DNA from: Enterobacteria phage GiZh
Direction: 5' to 3' (one strand)
Sequence record: NC_054903.1
DNA: 64,000 nt
Shown here: positions 75-27,288 of the stretch, piece by piece
How the letters are laid out: each line of letters begins with the position of its first letter
How positions within the stretch are numbered: the stretch's first letter is position 1
Made by a program: the position numbers and the translations under genes
Notes under the pieces: model-generated
Database searches by the model: none
What the model was told of the DNA's origin: nothing
What the model saw: the letters and a program-made list of their open reading frames with translations, nothing else

Positions 75-317
75 TTATTCCTTAATTCCTAGTACTTGTT
101 TAAAAGTCTCGTCGTAATCAAGACTTTGGCCCGTTTGTTCTTTATGTTTGTATATAATATCACTTACTTCTGATAGCATATTTTTATATGAACGAGTTAA
201 AGCAGATTTAAGCACGCTGTATCTATCAGGAAATTTACCATGTTCATTATAATAAGCTATTGCTAATTCACGGACTGCCTTTTCAGCAGTCTCCATATAT
301 TCTTTACGCTTGGTCAT
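75..317 (-). CDS. hypothetical protein, 80 aa (position of T4 nrdC.1)
   Basis: ORF track 75..476; the first 53 codons overlap the upstream gene, so the internal ATG at 317 (MTKRKEY...) is chosen; alternative ATG at 296. Start uncertain. Confidence 0.5.
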
Positions 318-621
318 TTTCTTCTCGGTCAAATCGGTGTTTACAATGGCGACATTTATAACGAAGATTATTAGTCTGCCAATGGACCAATTGCACCTGT
401 TCAGTTCCACATTCAGGGCAATTAGGAACGTTTTTAGAAGCCCTTTCGCGACGTTCAACCATAGCCATAATAGCATCCCATGCTGGAGGTTTAAAGTCTA
501 AATCATCACAACCATGAATCTTTCCACGCATTTCCAGATCGTCTTCTTCACCAGCCATAATAATTTTAATTAGACTGGAATTACTTGAAGCTGCAATATC
601 TTCTAATAGACGCTTTTTCAT
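304..621 (-). CDS. zinc-ribbon protein, 105 aa
   Basis: CPECG...CRHC four-cysteine motif near C-terminus; ATG preceded by GAGGT; ATGA overlap with stop of the upstream gene. Confidence 0.65.
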
Positions 622-1547
622 TTCAATACCTCAATAGCATTACGTAAACCATTTGCTTTTGCATTAAGAGCTTTTAACAATTTGGTGTGTTCGGCAATCT
701 GGGCTTCAACTTCAATCAAACGGGCATTGAGATATTCACGTTCTTCACTCAGATTATCAACCTTTTCTACTTTAGGTTCTTTTACAACTGTCTTATATGT
801 ATTAGGGTTCTTCAGTTTAATTAGAATGCGTGAACTGTATAACATTGAACCATTATCTTCGGTTTCGTCATACATTTCCACTACGTCCATAATTTTTAAC
901 ATCATGCGGAGTTTATAAGACAACGAACGAATAGTTTTGTTGTGCTTATTAATTTCTTTAGCTGTCATGGTGCCAAGATTACGTGAGTAATAATAAGGAA
1001 CCTGGATATTAATTAATACTGATGAACCACCTGGCTTGTGTGTTACTTCATCAGCAATAACCCAGTCCTTAACATGAACTGTATTTGTACGGTCATCGCC
1101 CGCGGTAAATAGTTTGCGAGCATGCTTAAAAAGCATATTCACTTGGTCATTGAATTGACAAGCAAATTTATCAGCAAATTTAGTTTCAGGAATGGTAGAT
1201 AACCAATCAGCCAAATGAGTCTTTTTAACATCGTTAACAATAGTAAATTCAACCAAATCGGTTATAGATGTCTCAGATTTAATAAAGCTCGGCTTCATAA
1301 AGTTTTTAATGTTATCGTGAGCTACAGTAGAAGATAACATACGAGAACGTTTAAACCATTCAAGCAAATTACCTAACGAATGAGAATAAGCGTTTTGAGT
1401 ATCTTTACAGATATGATTTTCCTGGCCAACATATTGAAGGAAATCACGAAGAATATTATTGATTACTGCTCTGTGTCCGATCTGATAATTACGATGTTTA
1501 GTAATAAGACTGTCAAAATAATCAATGTAATGTTTACGAGTTTTCAT
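618..1547 (-). CDS. hypothetical protein, 309 aa, C-terminal coiled coil (paralog set member 1)
   Basis: ORF track; ATG with GAGAAG upstream; C-terminal ~45 aa heptad-like ([44 protein letters not shown]). Confidence 0.75.
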   Translation of the reverse strand: MKTRKHYIDYFDSLITKHRNYQIGHRAVINNILRDFLQYVGQENHICKDTQNAYSHSLGNLLEWFKRSRMLSSTVAHDNIKNFMKPSFIKSETSITDLVEFTIVNDVKKTHLADWLSTIPETKFADKFACQFNDQVNMLFKHARKLFTAGDDRTNTVHVKDWVIADEVTHKPGGSSVLINIQVPYYYSRNLGTMTAKEINKHNKTIRSLSYKLRMMLKIMDVVEMYDETEDNGSMLYSSRILIKLKNPNTYKTVVKEPKVEKVDNLSEEREYLNARLIEVEAQIAEHTKLLKALNAKANGLRNAIEVLK

Positions 1548-1599
1548 GTTCTTCTCACTTGGTTAATGATTTATGCTCCGAGCCATCCTTGGCTTTAAA

Positions 1600-2601
1600 T
1601 TACTTAATTAACTGTAAAGCTTGTTCAAGACGATCCAAGCGATTGACAGATTCTTCCCAAATCTTTTTAGCCTGCTCATATTCTTTCTGCGCTTTATTAG
1701 AAATTTCTAGAACTTCTTTATAAGCTTTTTCTAATGCAATAACTTCTGGACGAATTTCTGCCGGTTCAGGCGAATCATCAAGATTATCCATTAGTTCCTC
1801 AAGGGTAGTTTCTTCTTTAGGAGTATTCACAATTTCCTCACATTTTTGTTGATAAATTTCTTTATCAGTAGGTGAATAAGCACATTTCACTTCACGAAGA
1901 CTAATTACAATTTTATATCCTTCCCATCCGCATATATTCTTAAAAGGATATGTATGAATATTTTCTACTGTTTCCATACAAAGTAATGCAGTCTCTAACT
2001 GACGAGTTATAGTGCTAGCAATTGAGAAAAATTTATTAATATTCTTTTGGTTAGCGTTTGGTGTAAAAAATCCATAATTCACAAAAATAGCTACTTTATT
2101 TTCATCAAGCTCATATTCTTTTACGATAATCATATCAGAAGCCAAAGGATGAATTTGACGATAATCGCCATAACATAATTTAGAAGCTGATTTTAGAATT
2201 TGTCCTTTGAAAAGTCTGAAATTACTAATCCAACGACGAGTAAAAATATTCTCAGGGTCTTCTTTATTATTAAGATGATAAGAATTAACATCACCGAACC
2301 AATTATATCCTACTACATCTTTGGTTCGTTTAATTTCTTTCCCAAAATTACCAAGAATATCCCGATTAACCAAATATGAAAGAAGACGAGACTCTTTAAA
2401 AGTTTTCTTGATAACATCTTTATCTACACGGCTAGAAATTTTACGAATTTCATGAATAAATTTAGTAGAAGAAACAATACTTGCATCAACACTATTGAGC
2501 CATTGATTGATAATAGAAAGAACGATATTTTGACCAAACATCGGTATAGCTTTATCATCAATAACGCTATTGAATGATTTGATATATTCGTTACGAGTCA
2601 T
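1600..2601 (-). CDS. hypothetical protein, 333 aa, C-terminal coiled coil (paralog set member 2)
   Basis: ORF track 1600..2652 trimmed to ATG at 2601 (MTRNEYIKSF) with GAGGAG 6 nt upstream; the longer version would start inside the early promoter at 2630-2658. Confidence 0.75.
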   Translation of the reverse strand: MTRNEYIKSFNSVIDDKAIPMFGQNIVLSIINQWLNSVDASIVSSTKFIHEIRKISSRVDKDVIKKTFKESRLLSYLVNRDILGNFGKEIKRTKDVVGYNWFGDVNSYHLNNKEDPENIFTRRWISNFRLFKGQILKSASKLCYGDYRQIHPLASDMIIVKEYELDENKVAIFVNYGFFTPNANQKNINKFFSIASTITRQLETALLCMETVENIHTYPFKNICGWEGYKIVISLREVKCAYSPTDKEIYQQKCEEIVNTPKEETTLEELMDNLDDSPEPAEIRPEVIALEKAYKEVLEISNKAQKEYEQAKKIWEESVNRLDRLEQALQLIK

Positions 2602-2629
2602 ATTAATCTCCTCAGTAGAAAGTAAGAAC

Positions 2630-2658
2630 ATTATACCACATCCTTGTGGCAAAGTAAA
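2630..2658 (-). promoter_or_regulatory. early promoter with stem-loop (PeSL-type): -35 TTTACT, 17-bp spacer, -10 TATAAT
   Basis: Minus-strand sense GTTTACTttgccacaaggatgtggTATAAT; spacer holds inverted repeat CCACA/TGTGG; precedes the gene at 1600-2601. Confidence 0.6.
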
Positions 2659-3663
2659 CTAGTTCAGTGCATTTAGTGCATTGTTCAGTTTAGAACGTTG
2701 CTTCGTGAGATTTTTGACTTTTTCTTGTGCTTTTTCTAGCATCTTTTCAGCTTCTAACACTTCATTGGTCGCTTTAACGAGTTCATCATCTACTGCCTTG
2801 ATGGACTTCTCAATCGCATCCGCGTGCCATTTTTCAACAGGTTTAAGACTCGGATTTTCAACAGGAAGAAAATTCACTTTATTAAATTTCCATGCATCTT
2901 TATTACCTGAACTATACATCCAAAATTTAGGATCGTTTGATGAGTAATTAGTTTGGGGTTCAGGTTTTTTCTCTTGTGTAACTTCGTCCTTTCTCAAAAA
3001 ATCATATTTAAATGAAACGATCATATCAAGTTCATATGTTGTCGTATCTAATTTAAATCGTTCGAAATGCTGCGAAATCTTAGATTGAACAGCAGCAACA
3101 ACATCCATATACTTAAATGCTTCTGTCAGCTGTGATTTAAGACATTCACAAATTGAAAGAGAATTTTTTGTATTAGGTTTAAAGCTAATTCGTGCAGTTC
3201 TATTATTTTCTTTAGATGGTCTTACTTCCATTTGAAGAGTATAACCATCAAATTTCAGATTCTTTAAGTTAATATCAGAACCTTTTAATCGACTAGCAGT
3301 AGACAAAATTTGCTTTAATTGTTTACGGAATAGAGCAATAAATCTCCATTCAAGACGATAATGATTTGGATTGAAAAATCCAGATGATAAATCGACCTTA
3401 CTCTGACCGACGCCTTGAACAAATAGAGGATTTTTATAATCAATAGTTTTACAGAAATCGGTGAGCTGCTCACGAGCAGTCATTTGTGTAATATATCCCG
3501 CTTTACTAAAATGACGTAACCATTCACTGCTATTCATATATTTAAAGTGAATATCACGATTAACTTTATCAGGGTCTAAATTATTTTGGCACAAAAATGT
3601 CATAACATTACGGGTATAGCTGGCATTACGAACCATATCTTCAATTTGAGAACGAGTTTTCAT
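2659..3663 (-). CDS. hypothetical protein, 334 aa, C-terminal coiled coil (paralog set member 3)
   Basis: ORF track; ATG with AAGGA upstream; C-terminal coiled coil (AIEKSIKAVDDELVKATNEVLEAEKMLEKAQEKVKNLTKQRSKLNNALNALN). Confidence 0.75.
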   Translation of the reverse strand: MKTRSQIEDMVRNASYTRNVMTFLCQNNLDPDKVNRDIHFKYMNSSEWLRHFSKAGYITQMTAREQLTDFCKTIDYKNPLFVQGVGQSKVDLSSGFFNPNHYRLEWRFIALFRKQLKQILSTASRLKGSDINLKNLKFDGYTLQMEVRPSKENNRTARISFKPNTKNSLSICECLKSQLTEAFKYMDVVAAVQSKISQHFERFKLDTTTYELDMIVSFKYDFLRKDEVTQEKKPEPQTNYSSNDPKFWMYSSGNKDAWKFNKVNFLPVENPSLKPVEKWHADAIEKSIKAVDDELVKATNEVLEAEKMLEKAQEKVKNLTKQRSKLNNALNALN

Positions 3664-3671
3664 AGTGTTCC

Positions 3672-4559
3672 TTAAGATTTAAGTAAATCAACAATTTTAA
3701 TTAATTTTTCACGCTCAGATTTAGCTTTACTACTCAATCCAGATAGTCTGAAAATTTCATCGTCATACTGTTGAATAGAAATATTCAGCTCTTCAATTTG
3801 CTTATTAAAATAATCAATTTGTTCAGAATGTTTTTCGTTACTACGAACTGGTACAGGTTTTGTAGGCAATTTAGTTGAACTGGATTCATCCGGGCGATAA
3901 ATTAAAATACAACTTGAACCAATTGGACATTTTGCACCAGATGAATATTCTAACGTTCCAGCTTCTTTTAAAACTTCAAAAGCTAAACAGAGATGATGCC
4001 CCATATTAACATAATCTGTAGAGCGAGCTCTGACGTAATAATCATCGCCGCGAATACTAAATTTAAAGCATTTAAGGTCTTCTGTATTATTGGTCTTAAA
4101 AATCATTTGTTTATCTAGACCTTTAGCTAATCGAGCGCCTAATGCTAATAATCGTCGTTGATTTTCCCACAAATCTGCGATCATTTGGTCAAATGATAAT
4201 TTCGGCATTAGTCGACCATAAAGGTCATATCCTTTATTATAATTACGAAGAATTTCACTCGCGTTAATACGAGACAATGCTCCAATTTTATTAAGGGCTT
4301 TCATAATGCGATTAGATAAACCCATTCCAGACCCGTTTGTTCGCTGTAAATGTTTTTCTAATCCAAATCCAATATCAACTTTAAACTTATCTAAAATTTC
4401 TGCATGAACATCTCTGTCAATAACATTCAAATCCAAAGTTGGGTTAAATCTATGAAAAAATTTATCTGGCTCTCCACGACGAAGTATAGTCCATTCATTC
4501 AATTTTTTATTAACTAAAGATTTAATTACTGCATTGACATTATTAATTACTACTGACAT
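3672..4559 (-). CDS. hypothetical protein, 295 aa, C-terminal coiled coil (paralog set member 4)
   Basis: ORF track 3672..4580 trimmed to ATG at 4559 (MSVVINN) with GAGGA upstream; the table start is TTG. Confidence 0.72.
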   Translation of the reverse strand: MSVVINNVNAVIKSLVNKKLNEWTILRRGEPDKFFHRFNPTLDLNVIDRDVHAEILDKFKVDIGFGLEKHLQRTNGSGMGLSNRIMKALNKIGALSRINASEILRNYNKGYDLYGRLMPKLSFDQMIADLWENQRRLLALGARLAKGLDKQMIFKTNNTEDLKCFKFSIRGDDYYVRARSTDYVNMGHHLCLAFEVLKEAGTLEYSSGAKCPIGSSCILIYRPDESSSTKLPTKPVPVRSNEKHSEQIDYFNKQIEELNISIQQYDDEIFRLSGLSSKAKSEREKLIKIVDLLKS

Positions 4560-4566
4560 ATTTTCC

Positions 4567-4974
4567 TCACTCAATTTCAATTTTACTAAATATACAGAAT
4601 ATGATGGAAAAGACTATATAAGCACCACACACAGATTGAACTAATACCATTCCAAAGAACCAAACAATATTATCAAACAATGTCTGTTTTACGTCGAAAG
4701 GACGTAAACTTACAGTAATATTATCACCTTTTTCTATTGAAGAATACATCTCCGGTGAAATATATTCGCTAAATCTATAACCGTCTTTAAGTTCATATAC
4801 GGCAATAAACGATAAACTAGACCCCTTTCCTTGAGTTCCTGTAAGGGTATTAACTACAGTAACATCATAATCTTTATAATGCATATAATCATTAATAGCA
4901 TAATAACCATATGCAATTACTATACATAAACAACATATCAATAAATTCAATCTTTTAATTATCAACTGTTTCAT
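4567..4974 (-). CDS. small membrane protein, 135 aa
   Basis: Hydrophobic segments at N-terminus (LNLLICCLCIVIAYGYYAI) and C-terminus (IVWFFGMVLVQSVCGAYIVFSIIFCIF). Confidence 0.7.
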   Translation of the reverse strand: MKQLIIKRLNLLICCLCIVIAYGYYAINDYMHYKDYDVTVVNTLTGTQGKGSSLSFIAVYELKDGYRFSEYISPEMYSSIEKGDNITVSLRPFDVKQTLFDNIVWFFGMVLVQSVCGAYIVFSIIFCIFSKIEIE

Positions 4975-5029
4975 AATAATCTCAGTTAAAAGGGCTTAGA
5001 ACCATTATACCATCCTTGGTATAAAGCGG

Positions 5030-5557
5030 TTATGCGAGTACCGTCTTTAACCGTTCTTCAAACTTCCGAAGAGTATTCTGGCGTTCAGCTCTTTGCTTTT
5101 TGTAAGTTTCAATACGCTCTGAAATGAGAGTGTATCGTTCATTTACTGATTCTTTCATAAAATCAGGAATTTCACGAGAAGCTTTAATCTCGTCAAATTT
5201 ATCAATAACTGCTTGCTCTTCAGCAATTAAGTTATCATACATCAAAATATCTTTCTTGATGAACTCAATATCTTCTTGAGTTACACGAGATAATTTAGAT
5301 GCTTTATCCTTTTTGTACTGTTCGTTAGTATCACGAGACCAGTGTAATGTACGATTTTTATTCGTATTCTTGTAAATTTCTACAATACCAATCTCATCGA
5401 TAATAATGATCCAATTCCAACGGGATTTGTAAATTTGTCCTCCATCAACCGTGATTTCACCTCCAATTGAGATGTCATTAAAGAACTTGCTTTGTGCTTC
5501 AGATTTAAATTTACCATCGTTGTAATTTACCAAGTTAAAAATATCTTTAGCATTCAT
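5030..5557 (-). CDS. hypothetical protein, 175 aa, C-terminal coiled coil
   Basis: ORF track; ATG with GGAGG upstream; early promoter element at 5585-5613 immediately upstream. Confidence 0.7.
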   Translation of the reverse strand: MNAKDIFNLVNYNDGKFKSEAQSKFFNDISIGGEITVDGGQIYKSRWNWIIIIDEIGIVEIYKNTNKNRTLHWSRDTNEQYKKDKASKLSRVTQEDIEFIKKDILMYDNLIAEEQAVIDKFDEIKASREIPDFMKESVNERYTLISERIETYKKQRAERQNTLRKFEERLKTVLA

Positions 5558-5584
5558 TTTTGTTCCTCCGTAGTTGATAGTTGT

Positions 5585-5613
5585 ATAGTACCACAGAGGA
5601 ACGGTCTTGTAAA
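5585..5613 (-). promoter_or_regulatory. early promoter (PeSL-type): -35 TTTACA, 17 bp, -10 TACTAT
   Basis: Shares the 22-mer AGTTGATAGTTGTATAGTACCA (plus-strand reading) with the elements at 7024 and 22283; precedes the gene at 5030-5557. Confidence 0.55.
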
Positions 5614-5616
5614 CAA

Positions 5617-5919
5617 CTAAAAGAAACTTCTTTCACAATTTTTTCCACTGAACCATGCGCTCACTGCTTTCTTAGTCTCAGGAGCGGTGTTATCCATAAA
5701 CCATTCAAATGCAGCCTTTTTATGATTCTGGAGGGCTTCTCGGGCTTTAATCTGCTCACGGTCTATTAACACTAACATATGAGCCTTTCTTGTCACCAAG
5801 GGCTTCTTATGATTTTTTGAATATTCCCAATCATTTGTCCAACGCATTGTCGTTGCGAACTGAAATACTGCTTCTTTAATTTTAGTTTCGTAAATTTCAC
5901 GAGCCTTTGAGTATAACAT
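5617..5919 (-). CDS. hypothetical protein, 100 aa
   Basis: ORF track 5617..5931 trimmed to ATG at 5919 (MLYSKAREIY) which has GGAGGT upstream; the ATG at 5931 has no Shine-Dalgarno. Confidence 0.6.
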   Translation of the reverse strand: MLYSKAREIYETKIKEAVFQFATTMRWTNDWEYSKNHKKPLVTRKAHMLVLIDREQIKAREALQNHKKAAFEWFMDNTAPETKKAVSAWFSGKNCERSFF

Positions 5920-6020
5920 CACTACCTCCATTTACCAGTTTAATTCTAGTCATCTTTTTGATGGCAGTCCATATAATCTATTTCTGAACTGCCTTTTTGT
6001 CTTAGAAGTCCTCTTATGAA

Positions 6021-6989
6021 TTATTTCAGAAGAGTAACCTCAGCAATTTCTTCCCAACCATTTTTGTCGGTCATAATAAAGTCAGCAAGATAAAGAGCAG
6101 TACGCAGTGAAACATTGCGTAAACGATTAACATTGACTTTCATCCATGATAATGCTTTATAAGTTTCTTCATCAGAAAGACCACGCTTTTGCATCATGTC
6201 GGTTGAAAGAATAACATCTTCAACCCTGACCATAATTTCTTCATTAGTGTGAACACCCAAATCTAAATAAACTGAGCGGGACACTAATGCTTGTAAGTGT
6301 GGAGCAAGTTTAGTACCACGGTCTAATTCGCGGTCAATGTCAACGTTTGTGATAAAAACAATCGTTCCTTTAAATTCAAACTCACGGTCAATGCCTTTTT
6401 CTTCTAAGTAAGAAGACGCAGTGCTCCAGCAGACTTTACGGGTCTCTCCAGTGTCCAGAGCAGCTTTTAGAAGATTAAGAATGTCCATATCAGAGAAAAC
6501 ATCCACATCATCAATCAAAAGGACAGAATTCTCTTCACGATTATTCCAAAGCTGCTCATAAAGACCAATACCAGAGATTTTACCATTAATGCTTTTATAT
6601 TCAATGTATCCAATATCATTTGCTTTATTTAAAGCTTTATCTAAAGAATACGTTTTACCAATACCTGCTGCGCCGGAGATAATTAATGAACGAATATTTC
6701 CATTAATAATACCATTCGTCATCATTCCCATAACATTAAATCTTTTATTAATGCGGGTTTTCATATCTTCATATGATTCTTTAACTTCTTCAACTTTTAC
6801 ACCATCATATGAAATATCTGATTTGTAAACCCAAACACCGCGACGTTTACCGTCAATTTCAACAAAAACTTTACCATCTCCTTGTGCATCTACCGGAGCA
6901 TTATCTGGGAACCATTCGCCTAAGAGCTCAAAAGTTCCAGAGATTTCTTTACCGAAGTAGATACCCTTATTGATAGTTACAGTTTTCAT
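6021..6989 (-). CDS. AAA+ / P-loop ATPase, 322 aa
   Basis: Walker A GAAGIGKT and Walker B LLIDDVD in the translated ORF; table start (7001) is TTG, ATG at 6989 has GGAG upstream. Confidence 0.8.
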   Translation of the reverse strand: MKTVTINKGIYFGKEISGTFELLGEWFPDNAPVDAQGDGKVFVEIDGKRRGVWVYKSDISYDGVKVEEVKESYEDMKTRINKRFNVMGMMTNGIINGNIRSLIISGAAGIGKTYSLDKALNKANDIGYIEYKSINGKISGIGLYEQLWNNREENSVLLIDDVDVFSDMDILNLLKAALDTGETRKVCWSTASSYLEEKGIDREFEFKGTIVFITNVDIDRELDRGTKLAPHLQALVSRSVYLDLGVHTNEEIMVRVEDVILSTDMMQKRGLSDEETYKALSWMKVNVNRLRNVSLRTALYLADFIMTDKNGWEEIAEVTLLK

Positions 6990-7023
6990 TTTATTCTCCA
7001 AATCCGTATCAGTTGATAGTTGT

Positions 7024-7052
7024 ATAGTACCATAAAGCTTTATGCTTGTAAA
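7024..7052 (-). promoter_or_regulatory. early promoter (PeSL-type): -35 TTTACA, 17 bp, -10 TACTAT
   Basis: Spacer contains palindrome CATAAAGCTTTATG; upstream A/T-rich tract ttttgtgaaaaattttt; precedes the ATPase gene and follows the terminator at 7075-7104. Confidence 0.6.
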
Positions 7053-7074
7053 CCGTTTTGTGAAAAATTTTTGA

Positions 7075-7104
7075 AATAAAAAAAAAGGGAGCCCGAAGGC
7101 TCCC
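7075..7104 (-). terminator. rho-independent terminator after the nucleotidyltransferase-fold gene
   Basis: Stem GGGAGCC-(CGAA)-GGCTCCC followed on the minus strand by a 9-U run. Confidence 0.8.
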
Positions 7105-7106
7105 TA

Positions 7107-8120
7107 TCATTTATAATAACTTCGGTGGTTTTCAAGATAGACCTTCTCAAGGAAGTCATCCCAGAAACTCATGTCTACTGTTTTAGGCATACCGTTCTTA
7201 GAAGCTTCAGTAGATGCTGCTTCTACTTGATCGACCACATCTTCCAAAAACTCTTGAACTGTTTTAAATGGATGTTTACCCAACTTCACGTCGAGAATAA
7301 ATGGAGCATCTTGAAGTGGATAGACTAAGTCACCAGTTTTGTAAATTTCCAATAGTTGGAGTCCACCACGACAAGCATGACTCAAAGCTTTCCAGTCAAT
7401 ACCTTCATTGGCTTCGGCCTTACGAGCACGTTCACCATATTCAGCATCTAATTTGTTCAGTGACTGCTTAAGCTCAATAAGAGAAAGCGTTGTCTGATAT
7501 TTACGACCCAACACAGTGTAGAACGTTTGTGGGCCTGTTTTCTCATGATTATGGAACACCCATTCACAGAATTCGTTTTCTGGAAGACGATGCTTAATAT
7601 CTTCAACTTTAGTGCGACGCTGCTTAATAGAACCATCTTCTTGGTAATCAATCCACTGCTCAGGGATTTGATTAACTACTTTCAATACATCACGTAATGC
7701 AGCCAAACGAGAACCTTTGACACCGTATTTAGAAGCTTGCTTGCGGACATATCCTAAATATGATTTCATGTTAGTCGTATAAAAACGAGAACGGTTGTCT
7801 TGAATAAACTTCCACACATCAGGCAAATCAGATTTAACCACTAGTTCAGGTGGAGTGTGAAGCATATCTAATGCTACGGTTTCACCATCTGCTGCTAATT
7901 TAAAGAAATATTTAAGACTGTATAGTTCATGGTCAATATCATCTTTAGTGTTTTTAGATGATGTGTTGTTAGTGTTTTTACTCATATGCTCTTTAACATT
8001 TCCGATAAGAATATCGCGAGCAGGAGGAACAAAGATTTCTTTAAAATCTACATCAGATTCTGGAGTAGAAGTTCCATAAAGATGACTACCAAAATAGCTT
8101 TTCATTACTGTTTTCATCAT
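7107..8120 (-). CDS. nucleotidyltransferase-fold (Pol-beta-like) protein, 337 aa
   Basis: N-terminal GSHLYGTSTPESDVDF fits the G[SG]...D.D minimal nucleotidyltransferase signature; ATGA overlap with the upstream gene; strong terminator just downstream. Confidence 0.72.
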   Translation of the reverse strand: MMKTVMKSYFGSHLYGTSTPESDVDFKEIFVPPARDILIGNVKEHMSKNTNNTSSKNTKDDIDHELYSLKYFFKLAADGETVALDMLHTPPELVVKSDLPDVWKFIQDNRSRFYTTNMKSYLGYVRKQASKYGVKGSRLAALRDVLKVVNQIPEQWIDYQEDGSIKQRRTKVEDIKHRLPENEFCEWVFHNHEKTGPQTFYTVLGRKYQTTLSLIELKQSLNKLDAEYGERARKAEANEGIDWKALSHACRGGLQLLEIYKTGDLVYPLQDAPFILDVKLGKHPFKTVQEFLEDVVDQVEAASTEASKNGMPKTVDMSFWDDFLEKVYLENHRSYYK

Positions 8121-26525: not shown

Positions 26526-26526
<1 letters not shown>

Positions 26527-27239
26527 TATAGTACCTTTAGTGTATTTTTAATTTTAGAAAAAAGTTCTTCAAGAGAACCATCGTTTGTAATTACTAAATC
26601 GCCATCACGAATTGGCAATCCAGCTTCTGTAATATGAGTATCATTGGATTTTTGACCAGGACGAACTACATGAATTACTGTAGCACCCATCTCCCTAGCC
26701 GCATCCATTTCATGATCTTGACGAGTATCAGGAACGATATAATAATCATAACCTGAGTTAAATTTATCAAGATAATCTAAAGCAAATAATTTTACCCAAT
26801 ACATGCGGTCGAAGTTATTAACAATCAAATCCGTACCTAGGGCTTGCATCAGACGACGGACTGACCATTGATCTTCAATATTATTTATAACGTCAGCAAT
26901 CTTATTAAATGCTACGAAATTAACTGCGTCATCAAAAACAAACACACCTTTAATTGGGCTTTTACTATTAAGATAGCAAAATGCTTGTTCCATAATCGTA
27001 ATTACTTCTAATTTAGTCAGATTTAAATTAGTCTCACGATCATAGTCAATTCCTTCAAACTCTTTACGAGTTAAGCAAGGATAGTCAGTGTTTTCTGCAA
27101 ATACGCCCCATGCATAAGCTAATGCATCTTTAATAGGACCAGCAAGTTGATATTTAACTGCAGAATAATTATTCATGATAAAATCTGCAGTAGTATCTTT
27201 TCCACTACGCTTTACACCGCTTAAAAAGATTAGTTTCAT
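26526..27239 (-). CDS. 1: deoxynucleoside monophosphate kinase
   Basis: ORF track 26526..27278 trimmed to ATG at 27239 giving MKLIFLSGVKRSGKDT (P-loop), the T4 gp1 N-terminus; GAGGAG upstream. Confidence 0.9.
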
Positions 27240-27288
27240 GTGTTTCTCCTCAAATTTAATTAAGATTATAACACACAAAACTGAAGCA

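Follow-up and report, generated by a model that had tools for sequence, protein, structure and literature searches.

Bacteriophage T4 is the reference lytic phage, and about half of its genes are without an assigned function; the nrdC-mobD block is a classic region of this kind. In 2022, Srikant et al. reported that a T4 deletion clone without nrdC.5 fails to plate on ECOR17 Dsr1 cells and that nrdC.5 alone restores plating (eLife, PMC9391042). Dsr1 is a SIR2-type defense protein that depletes nicotinamide adenine dinucleotide (NAD+) (PMC9391042). In this report, we describe an array of four consecutive genes, nrdC.6, nrdC.5, nrdC.4, and nrdC.3, in a stretch of 64,000 nucleotides of Enterobacteria phage GiZh (sequence record NC_054903.1), which is called the window below, and we present evidence that their products probably belong to a single protein superfamily. 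The four genes were already known as T4 ORFans, and the phenotype of nrdC.5 was known as well. In the literature, we found no prior description of a four-gene superfamily with NrdC.5, of its conserved C-terminal module, or of its copy-number variation at one locus.

The closest described system is T4 NrdC.5 itself (Srikant et al., eLife 2022, PMC9391042): the gene at 2659-3663 of the window is its orthologue, and nrdC.3, nrdC.4, and nrdC.6 are paralogs. However, the T4 allele is the only one for which activity against Dsr1 has been demonstrated, and because the paralogs share only ~10-25% identity in the head, the same target cannot be assumed for them. DSAD1, a protein of SPbeta-family phages, neutralizes the SIR2-type, NAD+-depleting DSR2 by stoichiometric binding (PMC10973363, PMC11087589), and this is the functional analogue that would be expected for the pair of NrdC.5 and Dsr1. 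The two are likened by function alone. DSAD1 belongs to another phage lineage, acts on DSR2, and is not part of a paralog array. The T-even internal proteins IPI, IPII, and IPIII resemble the array in their design, in that diversified bodies are combined with one conserved short module in accessory, variable proteins that counter different defenses. IPI* counters GmrSD. IPIII is another member with a counter-defense role (PMC9391042). The internal proteins, however, are packaged and have in common an N-terminal peptide for capsid targeting, whereas the array has a C-terminal helix of 45-60 residues and its products are predicted to be early cytoplasmic proteins. The anti-defense clusters of T4 (the dmd-tifA-adfA “anti-TA island”, where TA stands for toxin-antitoxin, and the anti-OLD gp49.2 next to nrdC) are similar to the array in that counter-defense genes are grouped in accessory early regions. 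They differ from it in consisting of unrelated small proteins, whereas the array holds four copies of one 300-amino-acid scaffold.

The window is a segment of a Tequatrovirus genome, and its first 8.2 kb shares 98% identity with Shigella phage Sf22 and 97% with many T4-like coliphages. The initial annotation, made from the letters alone, proposed a tandem array of four paralogs with a common architecture at this place, and the coordinates of the open reading frames (ORFs) agree with the four consecutive same-strand genes that it listed. Their orthology to T4 nrdC.3-nrdC.6 was established against the annotated records of T4 and Kha5h:

618-1547, minus strand: nrdC.3 orthologue, 309 amino acids (ORF, phrog_1435 match, identity to T4)
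1600-2601, minus strand: nrdC.4 orthologue, 333 amino acids (ORF, phrog_1435 match, AlphaFold2 model)
2659-3663, minus strand: nrdC.5 orthologue, 334 amino acids (Pfam DUF7235, PF23882; identity to T4)
3672-4559, minus strand: nrdC.6 orthologue, intact in the window, 295 amino acids (phrog_2257 match; alignment with the T4, VR26, and FB copies)

Because all four genes are on the minus strand, the order of transcription is nrdC.6, nrdC.5, nrdC.4, and nrdC.3. The gene lengths are as similar as had been claimed, and the M(K)TR start ascribed to three of the proteins is seen in the translations. Identity to the T4 proteins is 61% for nrdC.3, 96% for nrdC.4, 91% for nrdC.5 (over its full length; as in T4, the gene is flanked by nrdC.6 and nrdC.4), and 97% for nrdC.6.

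Among the four proteins, BLASTP links only nrdC.3 and nrdC.4, with 25% identity over 226 residues. We collected homologues, together with the syntenic loci from other genera, and compared the resulting profiles using hhalign. At this level, nrdC.3 and nrdC.4 match at 98.3% (E 1.7e-14). With divergent Gaprivervirus and Dhakavirus homologues of nrdC.5 added, the nrdC.3/4 family matches nrdC.5 at 93% over the full length (E 3e-7). When the C-terminal helix is removed, the two match at 91.7% (E 7.9e-7). When profiles leaving out one family at a time were run against the 212 ORFs of the window, nrdC.5 (E 1e-9) and nrdC.4 (E 6e-5) were each recovered at rank 1 and nrdC.3 at rank 2 (E 0.015). These observations make it highly probable that nrdC.3, nrdC.4, and nrdC.5 constitute one superfamily. 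The ORF at 26526-27278, which recurred as the best other match in the leave-one-out tests, is the gp1 deoxynucleoside monophosphate kinase, a P-loop protein, and was set aside as a chance match.

In direct hhalign comparisons, nrdC.6 matches the other families at only 4-18%, and its membership is supported by structure search and by bridging sequences. The AlphaFold2 model of nrdC.4 matches the BFVD model of nrdC.6 from phage JS10 in Foldseek (E 3.1e-5, probability 1.0). In addition, an hhalign chain runs from the nrdC.6 family to the Kanagawavirus proteins (94.2%, E 1e-7), from these to the Marfavirus proteins (96.9%), and from the latter to nrdC.3/4 (97.0%) and nrdC.5 (95.6%). With the N-terminal domains alone, the nrdC.6 step of the chain falls to 66% and covers one motif (B) only. 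The all-against-all comparison suggested in the initial annotation thus links all four proteins at the profile level (nrdC.6 weakly) and, in BLASTP, only the pair nrdC.3-nrdC.4; the similarity of the N-terminal domains, likewise, stands for nrdC.3, nrdC.4, and nrdC.5 and is modest for nrdC.6. The same motifs occur in the same order in every pairwise alignment, including the weak ones: motif A, h..A...L..F (e.g., FKESRLLSYLVNRDILGNF, FSKAGYITQMTAREQLTDF, and LNKIGALSRINASEILRNY); motif B, hL..[GA][SA][RK]L; motif C, h..Ah..h..V; and a pre-helix motif, P...[PA]hE..[YH]. An N-terminal M(K)TR..E.I is common to the superfamily except nrdC.6. We consider it likely that nrdC.6 belongs to the same superfamily as the other three, and the three Pfam/PHROG families thereby collapse into one.

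An obvious objection is that these are unrelated ORFans of similar size that happen to end in an amphipathic helix, as might be suspected from the single BLASTP link and from the three separate families in Pfam. On the contrary, the profile, leave-one-out, bridging-sequence, and structure-search results are concordant, each pairwise alignment recovers the shared motifs in a constant order, and no other ORF of the window matches, not even nrdC.8, which has an amphipathic helix of its own. Such a chance likeness is scarcely credible, and the tandem paralog array proposed in the initial annotation is supported.

The common architecture consists of a basic head, in which a small helical subdomain precedes an α/β core, then a linker that varies and is in part disordered, and finally an amphipathic heptad helix. 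The C-terminal helices, which are 45-60 residues long and heptad-patterned in all four proteins, are as follows:

621-755, minus strand: C-terminal heptad helix of nrdC.3, residues ~265-309 (heptad score, motif, register)
1603-1749, minus strand: C-terminal helix of nrdC.4, residues 285-333, ending in ...DRLEQALQLIK (AlphaFold2 helix 285-332, motif, register)
2662-2841, minus strand: C-terminal helix of nrdC.5, residues 275-334, ending in ...SKLNNALNALN (AlphaFold2 helix 275-333, heptad score, motif, register)
3675-3833, minus strand: C-terminal helical module of nrdC.6, residues ~243-295, ending in ...EKLIKIVDLLKS (heptad score, motif, register)

AlphaFold2 gives one long helix in nrdC.4 (residues 285-332; predicted local distance difference test, pLDDT, 73-84) and a helix in nrdC.5 (residues 275-333, pLDDT 70-92) within an otherwise poor model. 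In nrdC.6, the module has a glycine break near residues 272-275. By a simple heptad score (35-residue window, 300 shuffles per protein), the best window is the C-terminus in nrdC.3, nrdC.5, and nrdC.6, and none of the 300 shuffles reaches its value. The case of nrdC.4 is less clear by this score, as its best window is N-terminal and two of 300 shuffles reach it. When the register is anchored at the C-terminus over all family members, the hydrophobic fraction is 0.67-1.0 at positions a and d, versus 0.03-0.43 at b, c, e, and f, and it is intermediate at g, giving a broad a/d/g face. The register relative to the C-terminus is identical in the four families, and the superfamily alignment has a shared terminus, R.KL..Ah.hLK-COOH. 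The AlphaFold2 models, the shuffle test, and the a/d occupancy thus all show the long helix and a/d periodicity expected of a coiled coil. A profile of the C-terminal module matches these four proteins only, among the 212 ORFs of the window, and in leave-one-out form it gives a clear signal for nrdC.5 (E 2e-6) and weak ones for the other three. Conservation within Tequatrovirus is highest, in each protein, at the C-terminal helix (pairwise identity 0.86-0.96) and lowest in the linker and at residues ~15-35. The four helices are real and occupy equivalent positions, with a heptad pattern in each, and the claim that each protein carries one was borne out.

The gene nrdC.8 (5030-5557, minus strand; 175 amino acids) was considered as a fifth member. 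Its product has an amphipathic heptad helix at the C-terminus, ...RKFEERLKTVLA, whose score is reached by three of 300 shuffles, and it was rejected as it matches neither the C-terminal module profile nor the superfamily profiles. Separately, gp082 of Klebsiella phage Marfa (L018:5272-5706), whose gene lies two genes upstream of that for the single-copy family member, is 144 amino acids long and terminates in “...QLRNIDNGLFALK”. This end resembles the terminal motif of the family, and gp082 could, from its sequence, be a carrier of the helix that is head-less or has a different head.

The AlphaFold2 model of nrdC.4 (pLDDT 83) comprises a helical subdomain (residues 1-85), an α/β core (88-245) with the strand order βββ-α-ββ-α-ββ (88-235), an acidic, disordered linker (260-283), and the helix (285-332). 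For nrdC.5, the model obtained from a shallow family alignment was unusable (pLDDT 46). As for a common fold, which the initial annotation proposed to test with structural models, the Foldseek match of the nrdC.4 model to the nrdC.6 model speaks in its favor. Besides nrdC.6, Foldseek matches the nrdC.4 model to ~19 uncharacterized proteins of 280-370 amino acids from T4-like phages. No solved structure lies close to it in the Protein Data Bank (PDB) at E <= 1e-3, and searches of PDB sequences with family profiles found nothing. All four heads are basic (isoelectric point, pI, 9.2-9.6; net charge +8 to +13), and almost every position that the superfamily conserves is hydrophobic or structural. 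Searches of Pfam, NCBIfam, and PADLOC matched the four proteins to no enzyme family. Taken together, the nature of the conserved positions and the lack of an enzyme match make a binding scaffold likelier than an enzyme, and the family looks like a non-enzymatic binding scaffold.

In the databases, nrdC.3 and nrdC.4 match phrog_1435 end to end (E 2.1e-116 and 2.4e-169), and all close homologues of the nrdC.3/nrdC.4 family carry a precomputed PF26897. nrdC.5 matches DUF7235 (PF23882) with 393.5 bits against a cut-off of 30 (E 1e-117; residues 1-334 on positions 1-307 of the 307 of the model), and nrdC.6 matches phrog_2257 over its full length (E 6.4e-153), with homologues carrying PF26899. PHROGs therefore merges nrdC.3 with nrdC.4, and both Pfam and PHROGs keep nrdC.5 and nrdC.6 apart. 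The PADLOC and NCBIfam scans otherwise gave sub-threshold noise only, and the Pfam matches of nrdC.3 to “PHL” and of nrdC.4 to “DUF3905” were below the cut-off. An exhaustive HMMER search with the N-terminal domain profile of nrdC.3/4 against 1.84 billion representative proteins yielded 10 matches at E <= 1e-3, one of which, P0268, is the bridging protein of Marfavirus. By sequence, the family is therefore very narrow and confined to T4-like phages. It should be mentioned that many deposited T4-like genomes label nrdC.1-nrdC.11 (75-8120 of the window), including these four genes, as “thioredoxin”. A thioredoxin or glutaredoxin identity was rejected, as no such family was found for the four proteins in Pfam (E <= 1) or NCBIfam (E <= 0.1), and the label is carry-over from the gene name nrdC.

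Family members were found in T4-like phages of enterobacteria only, nearly all of them Tevenvirinae. The array lies just upstream of a homologue of nrdC.2, with one to four copies according to the genus:

Tequatrovirus: four copies, nrdC.6-.5-.4-.3
Gaprivervirus and Dhakavirus: three copies, nrdC.6-.5-.4
Mosigvirus: three copies, nrdC.6-.5-.3
Marfavirus and Kanagawavirus: a single copy

nrdC.3 was found in Tequatrovirus and Mosigvirus. The similar uncharacterized proteins retrieved by Foldseek come from T4-like phages of Acinetobacter, Pectobacterium, Erwinia, Serratia, Yersinia, and Klebsiella, and two of them, in Acj61, have adjacent accessions. By tblastn, 652 phage records contain nrdC.3, 552 nrdC.4, 650 nrdC.5, and 740 nrdC.6. 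In the RefSeq record of phage Kha5h (NC_054905), an intact nrdC.5 ORF of 334 amino acids (L001:4247-5251; profile E 5e-213) occupies a 1-kb stretch without an annotated gene.

Gene turnover at this locus takes several forms. nrdC.3 occurs as two allele classes that are ~60% identical in genomes otherwise ~96% identical: within Tequatrovirus, 360 records have at least 80% identity and 241 have 60-80%, and T4 nrdC.3, at 61% identity to the window copy, represents the other class. The classes differ mainly in the α/β core and retain conserved termini. In Salmonella phage Manna, Manna_094 (L021:3715-4752) is an in-frame chimera of 345 amino acids that replaces nrdC.6, nrdC.5, and nrdC.4; residues 1-~268 of nrdC.6 are joined to residues 251-333 of nrdC.4 across an overlap of ~22 nucleotides, and the head-linker-helix layout is kept. 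The metagenomic protein P0057 fuses nrdC.5 (146-~270) to nrdC.3 (139-309), and phage ACG-C40 (L022:4305-4716) has a 71-codon remnant of nrdC.5 fused to the final 72 codons of nrdC.3; these two fusions are deletion products between paralogs. nrdC.4 is split into two overlapping ORFs (200 and 158 amino acids) in one IMG/VR contig (L009:5950-7003), the T2 nrdC.4 matches in two pieces, and BFVD holds fragments of 155-158 amino acids from T2 and phage G8; these splits look like recurrent frameshifts. T4 nrdC.6 (L002:5567-6394; 275 amino acids) diverges after “...FNKQIEEL” and ends early, without the C-terminal helix, whereas the copies of the window, VR26, and FB keep it, and the T4 truncation looks like a frameshift in the reference strain. 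In other words, the array is recombinationally active, accessory, and fast-evolving.

What might these proteins do? The phenotype of nrdC.5, the anti-defense genes in the neighborhood, the early-promoter-like sites upstream, and the evolutionary behavior of the array together point to early inhibitors with retargeted heads and an oligomerizing or docking helix. As for the neighborhood, pin, which encodes a Lon protease inhibitor, is in the same gene block as the array, and gene 49.2, which lies a few genes downstream, encodes an inhibitor of the OLD defense nuclease in T6 (PMC13096335). The four genes are paralogs from a single family that arose by ancient duplication and have diverged strongly, and according to this model their products would be expressed early and act as stoichiometric inhibitors. 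The heads would bind and block host immune proteins, a different one for each paralog or else variants of the same one, and the helix would oligomerize the proteins or dock them to a common partner, thereby raising avidity for oligomeric defense proteins. We infer different targets for nrdC.3, nrdC.4, and nrdC.6 and a joining role for the helix, and this combination fits the conservation of the helix, the terminal motif, and the published anti-Dsr1 role of T4 NrdC.5. On balance, we favor the view that the array encodes early, non-enzymatic inhibitors of different host defenses, joined or docked by a conserved helix. Several points weigh against it: (i) an experimental phenotype exists for NrdC.5 only; (ii) in the literature that we could search, we found no publication on the mechanism of NrdC.5, including direct binding to Dsr1; (iii) the direct sequence link of nrdC.6 to the other families is weak; (iv) as the nrdC.5 model is unusable, only sequence profiles support a shared fold for this protein; and (v) the basic heads and a sub-threshold SAM-like match, described below, also fit nucleic-acid binding.

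The four proteins may be paralogs of which only NrdC.5 acts in counter-defense, while the others have unrelated roles in host takeover, are redundant, or are decaying. We found no functional literature for nrdC.3, nrdC.4, or nrdC.6, nor for DUF7235 or the Pfam accessions, beyond the nrdC.5-Dsr1 paper. Loss, truncation, and frameshift are frequent (T4 nrdC.6, the split nrdC.4 of L009 and T2, and the deletions of Manna and ACG-C40), the array is dispensable in laboratory hosts, and evolved T4 clones lose nrdC.5 by deletion. However, each paralog is intact in hundreds of genomes, with 295-335 amino acids and the terminal motif, and across genera at ~25-50% identity, which argues for selection on every copy; lineage-specific loss is also typical of host-specific anti-defense genes. 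We therefore regard this restricted role as unlikely, though it deserves to be kept in mind. A different suggestion is that the proteins are dimeric nucleic-acid-binding proteins acting on phage or host DNA or RNA, and that the anti-Dsr1 effect is indirect (e.g., the trigger is masked or delayed). A C-terminal coiled coil is a common dimerization device in DNA-binding proteins, the heads are basic, and residues 30-86 of nrdC.3 show a sub-threshold match to the SAM-like N-terminal (core-binding) domain of tyrosine recombinases, with NCBIfam XerD-type matches at E 0.002-0.015. On the other hand, the AT-rich genome makes many T4 proteins basic, and the SAM-like matches are far below the curated cut-offs (13.7 bits versus 22.3 in Pfam, E 0.076; 17.3 versus 279 in NCBIfam) and are confined to this one paralog. 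Moreover, plasmid-expressed nrdC.5 restored the infectivity of the deletion phage on Dsr1 cells (PMC9391042). This makes a role in nucleic-acid binding decidedly improbable.

A recent preprint (2026) reports that the sensor domains of Dsr1 and Avs7 recognize phage major capsid proteins (PMC12803255), which makes the sensing of structural proteins relevant here. The α/β core could then derive from a virion tail-terminator or completion protein, and the array products could be early decoys that pre-occupy immune sensors. This origin is very unlikely, since Foldseek against PDB gave nothing at E <= 1e-3 (the tail terminator gpU appears at E ~0.4), no tail-terminator Pfam family matched the four proteins at E <= 1, the reported Dsr1 trigger is the capsid and not the tail terminator, and two-layer α/β sandwiches recur by convergence. 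Tail terminators (λ gpU, T5 p142, and SPP1 gp17-like) are, furthermore, late virion proteins of ~130-190 amino acids that form hexameric rings, without the helical N-terminal subdomain or the C-terminal coiled coil, and have no significant Foldseek or sequence similarity to the array. A bolder speculation combines the two ideas: the helix would be a shared assembly or docking module, beyond mere self-association, that joins the differently specific heads into one hetero-oligomeric, multi-specific complex or docks them on a common hub, and the heads would be early-expressed mimics of a tail-terminator-like fold, jamming sensors of structural proteins such as that of Dsr1. Co-expressed paralogs with no need but self-association should drift apart, yet R.KL..A…LK is kept and the helix is the most conserved segment, which argues for a shared assembly or docking module. 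We nevertheless rate this combined proposal as improbable.

If the array does encode inhibitors of different defenses, it would be a phage example of the expansion of a gene family for immune evasion, as in poxviruses and herpesviruses. The superfamily includes the only known anti-Dsr1 protein, which makes nrdC.3, nrdC.4, and nrdC.6 candidate immune inhibitors, and its alleles, paralogs, and chimeras (Manna_094) provide a natural specificity series for mapping how the scaffold is retargeted.

The initial annotation had placed the array directly next to nrdC, and this proved incorrect, as two genes intervene, and the left edge of the window runs through nrdC:

304-621, minus strand: nrdC.2, between the array and nrdC
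75-317: nrdC.1, between the array and nrdC

The start codon of nrdC.2 overlaps the stop codon of nrdC.3 (ATGA). Its product of 105 amino acids has a C-terminal CxxC...CxxC zinc ribbon with weak matches to many zinc-ribbon families, and in all genera examined the nrdC.2 family is conserved immediately downstream of the array.

Shine-Dalgarno-like sequences (GAGG, AAGGA, or GAGGAG) precede the ATG starts clearly in nrdC.4, nrdC.5, and nrdC.6, and weakly (GAGA) in nrdC.3. Two promoter-like elements were noted:

2630-2658, minus strand: site resembling a T4 early promoter, immediately upstream of nrdC.4, with TTTACT-17-TATAAT and an extended -10 TG (consensus match only)
5004-5012, minus strand: extended -10-like element TGGTATAAT, upstream of nrdC.7 (read from the sequence; the promoter scan did not report it)

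The TGGTATAAT element could drive nrdC.7, nrdC.6, and nrdC.5 as a single early transcript. Exact copies of CCAAGGATGG occur upstream of nrdC.3 (1583-1592, minus strand) and upstream of nrdC.7 (5010-5019, minus strand; here as part of ...CCAAGGATGGTATAAT). As an upstream motif, CCAAGGATGG was rejected, because its count is reached in 11 of 100 shuffles and is not above chance. Farther upstream, between nrdC.11 and nrdC.10, a strong GC-rich hairpin (8 bp, 6 of them GC) with a T-run lies at 7086-7105 (both strands) and is annotated as a rho-independent terminator in Kha5h; after it follows a promoter-like TTTACA-17-TACTAT at 7052-7024.

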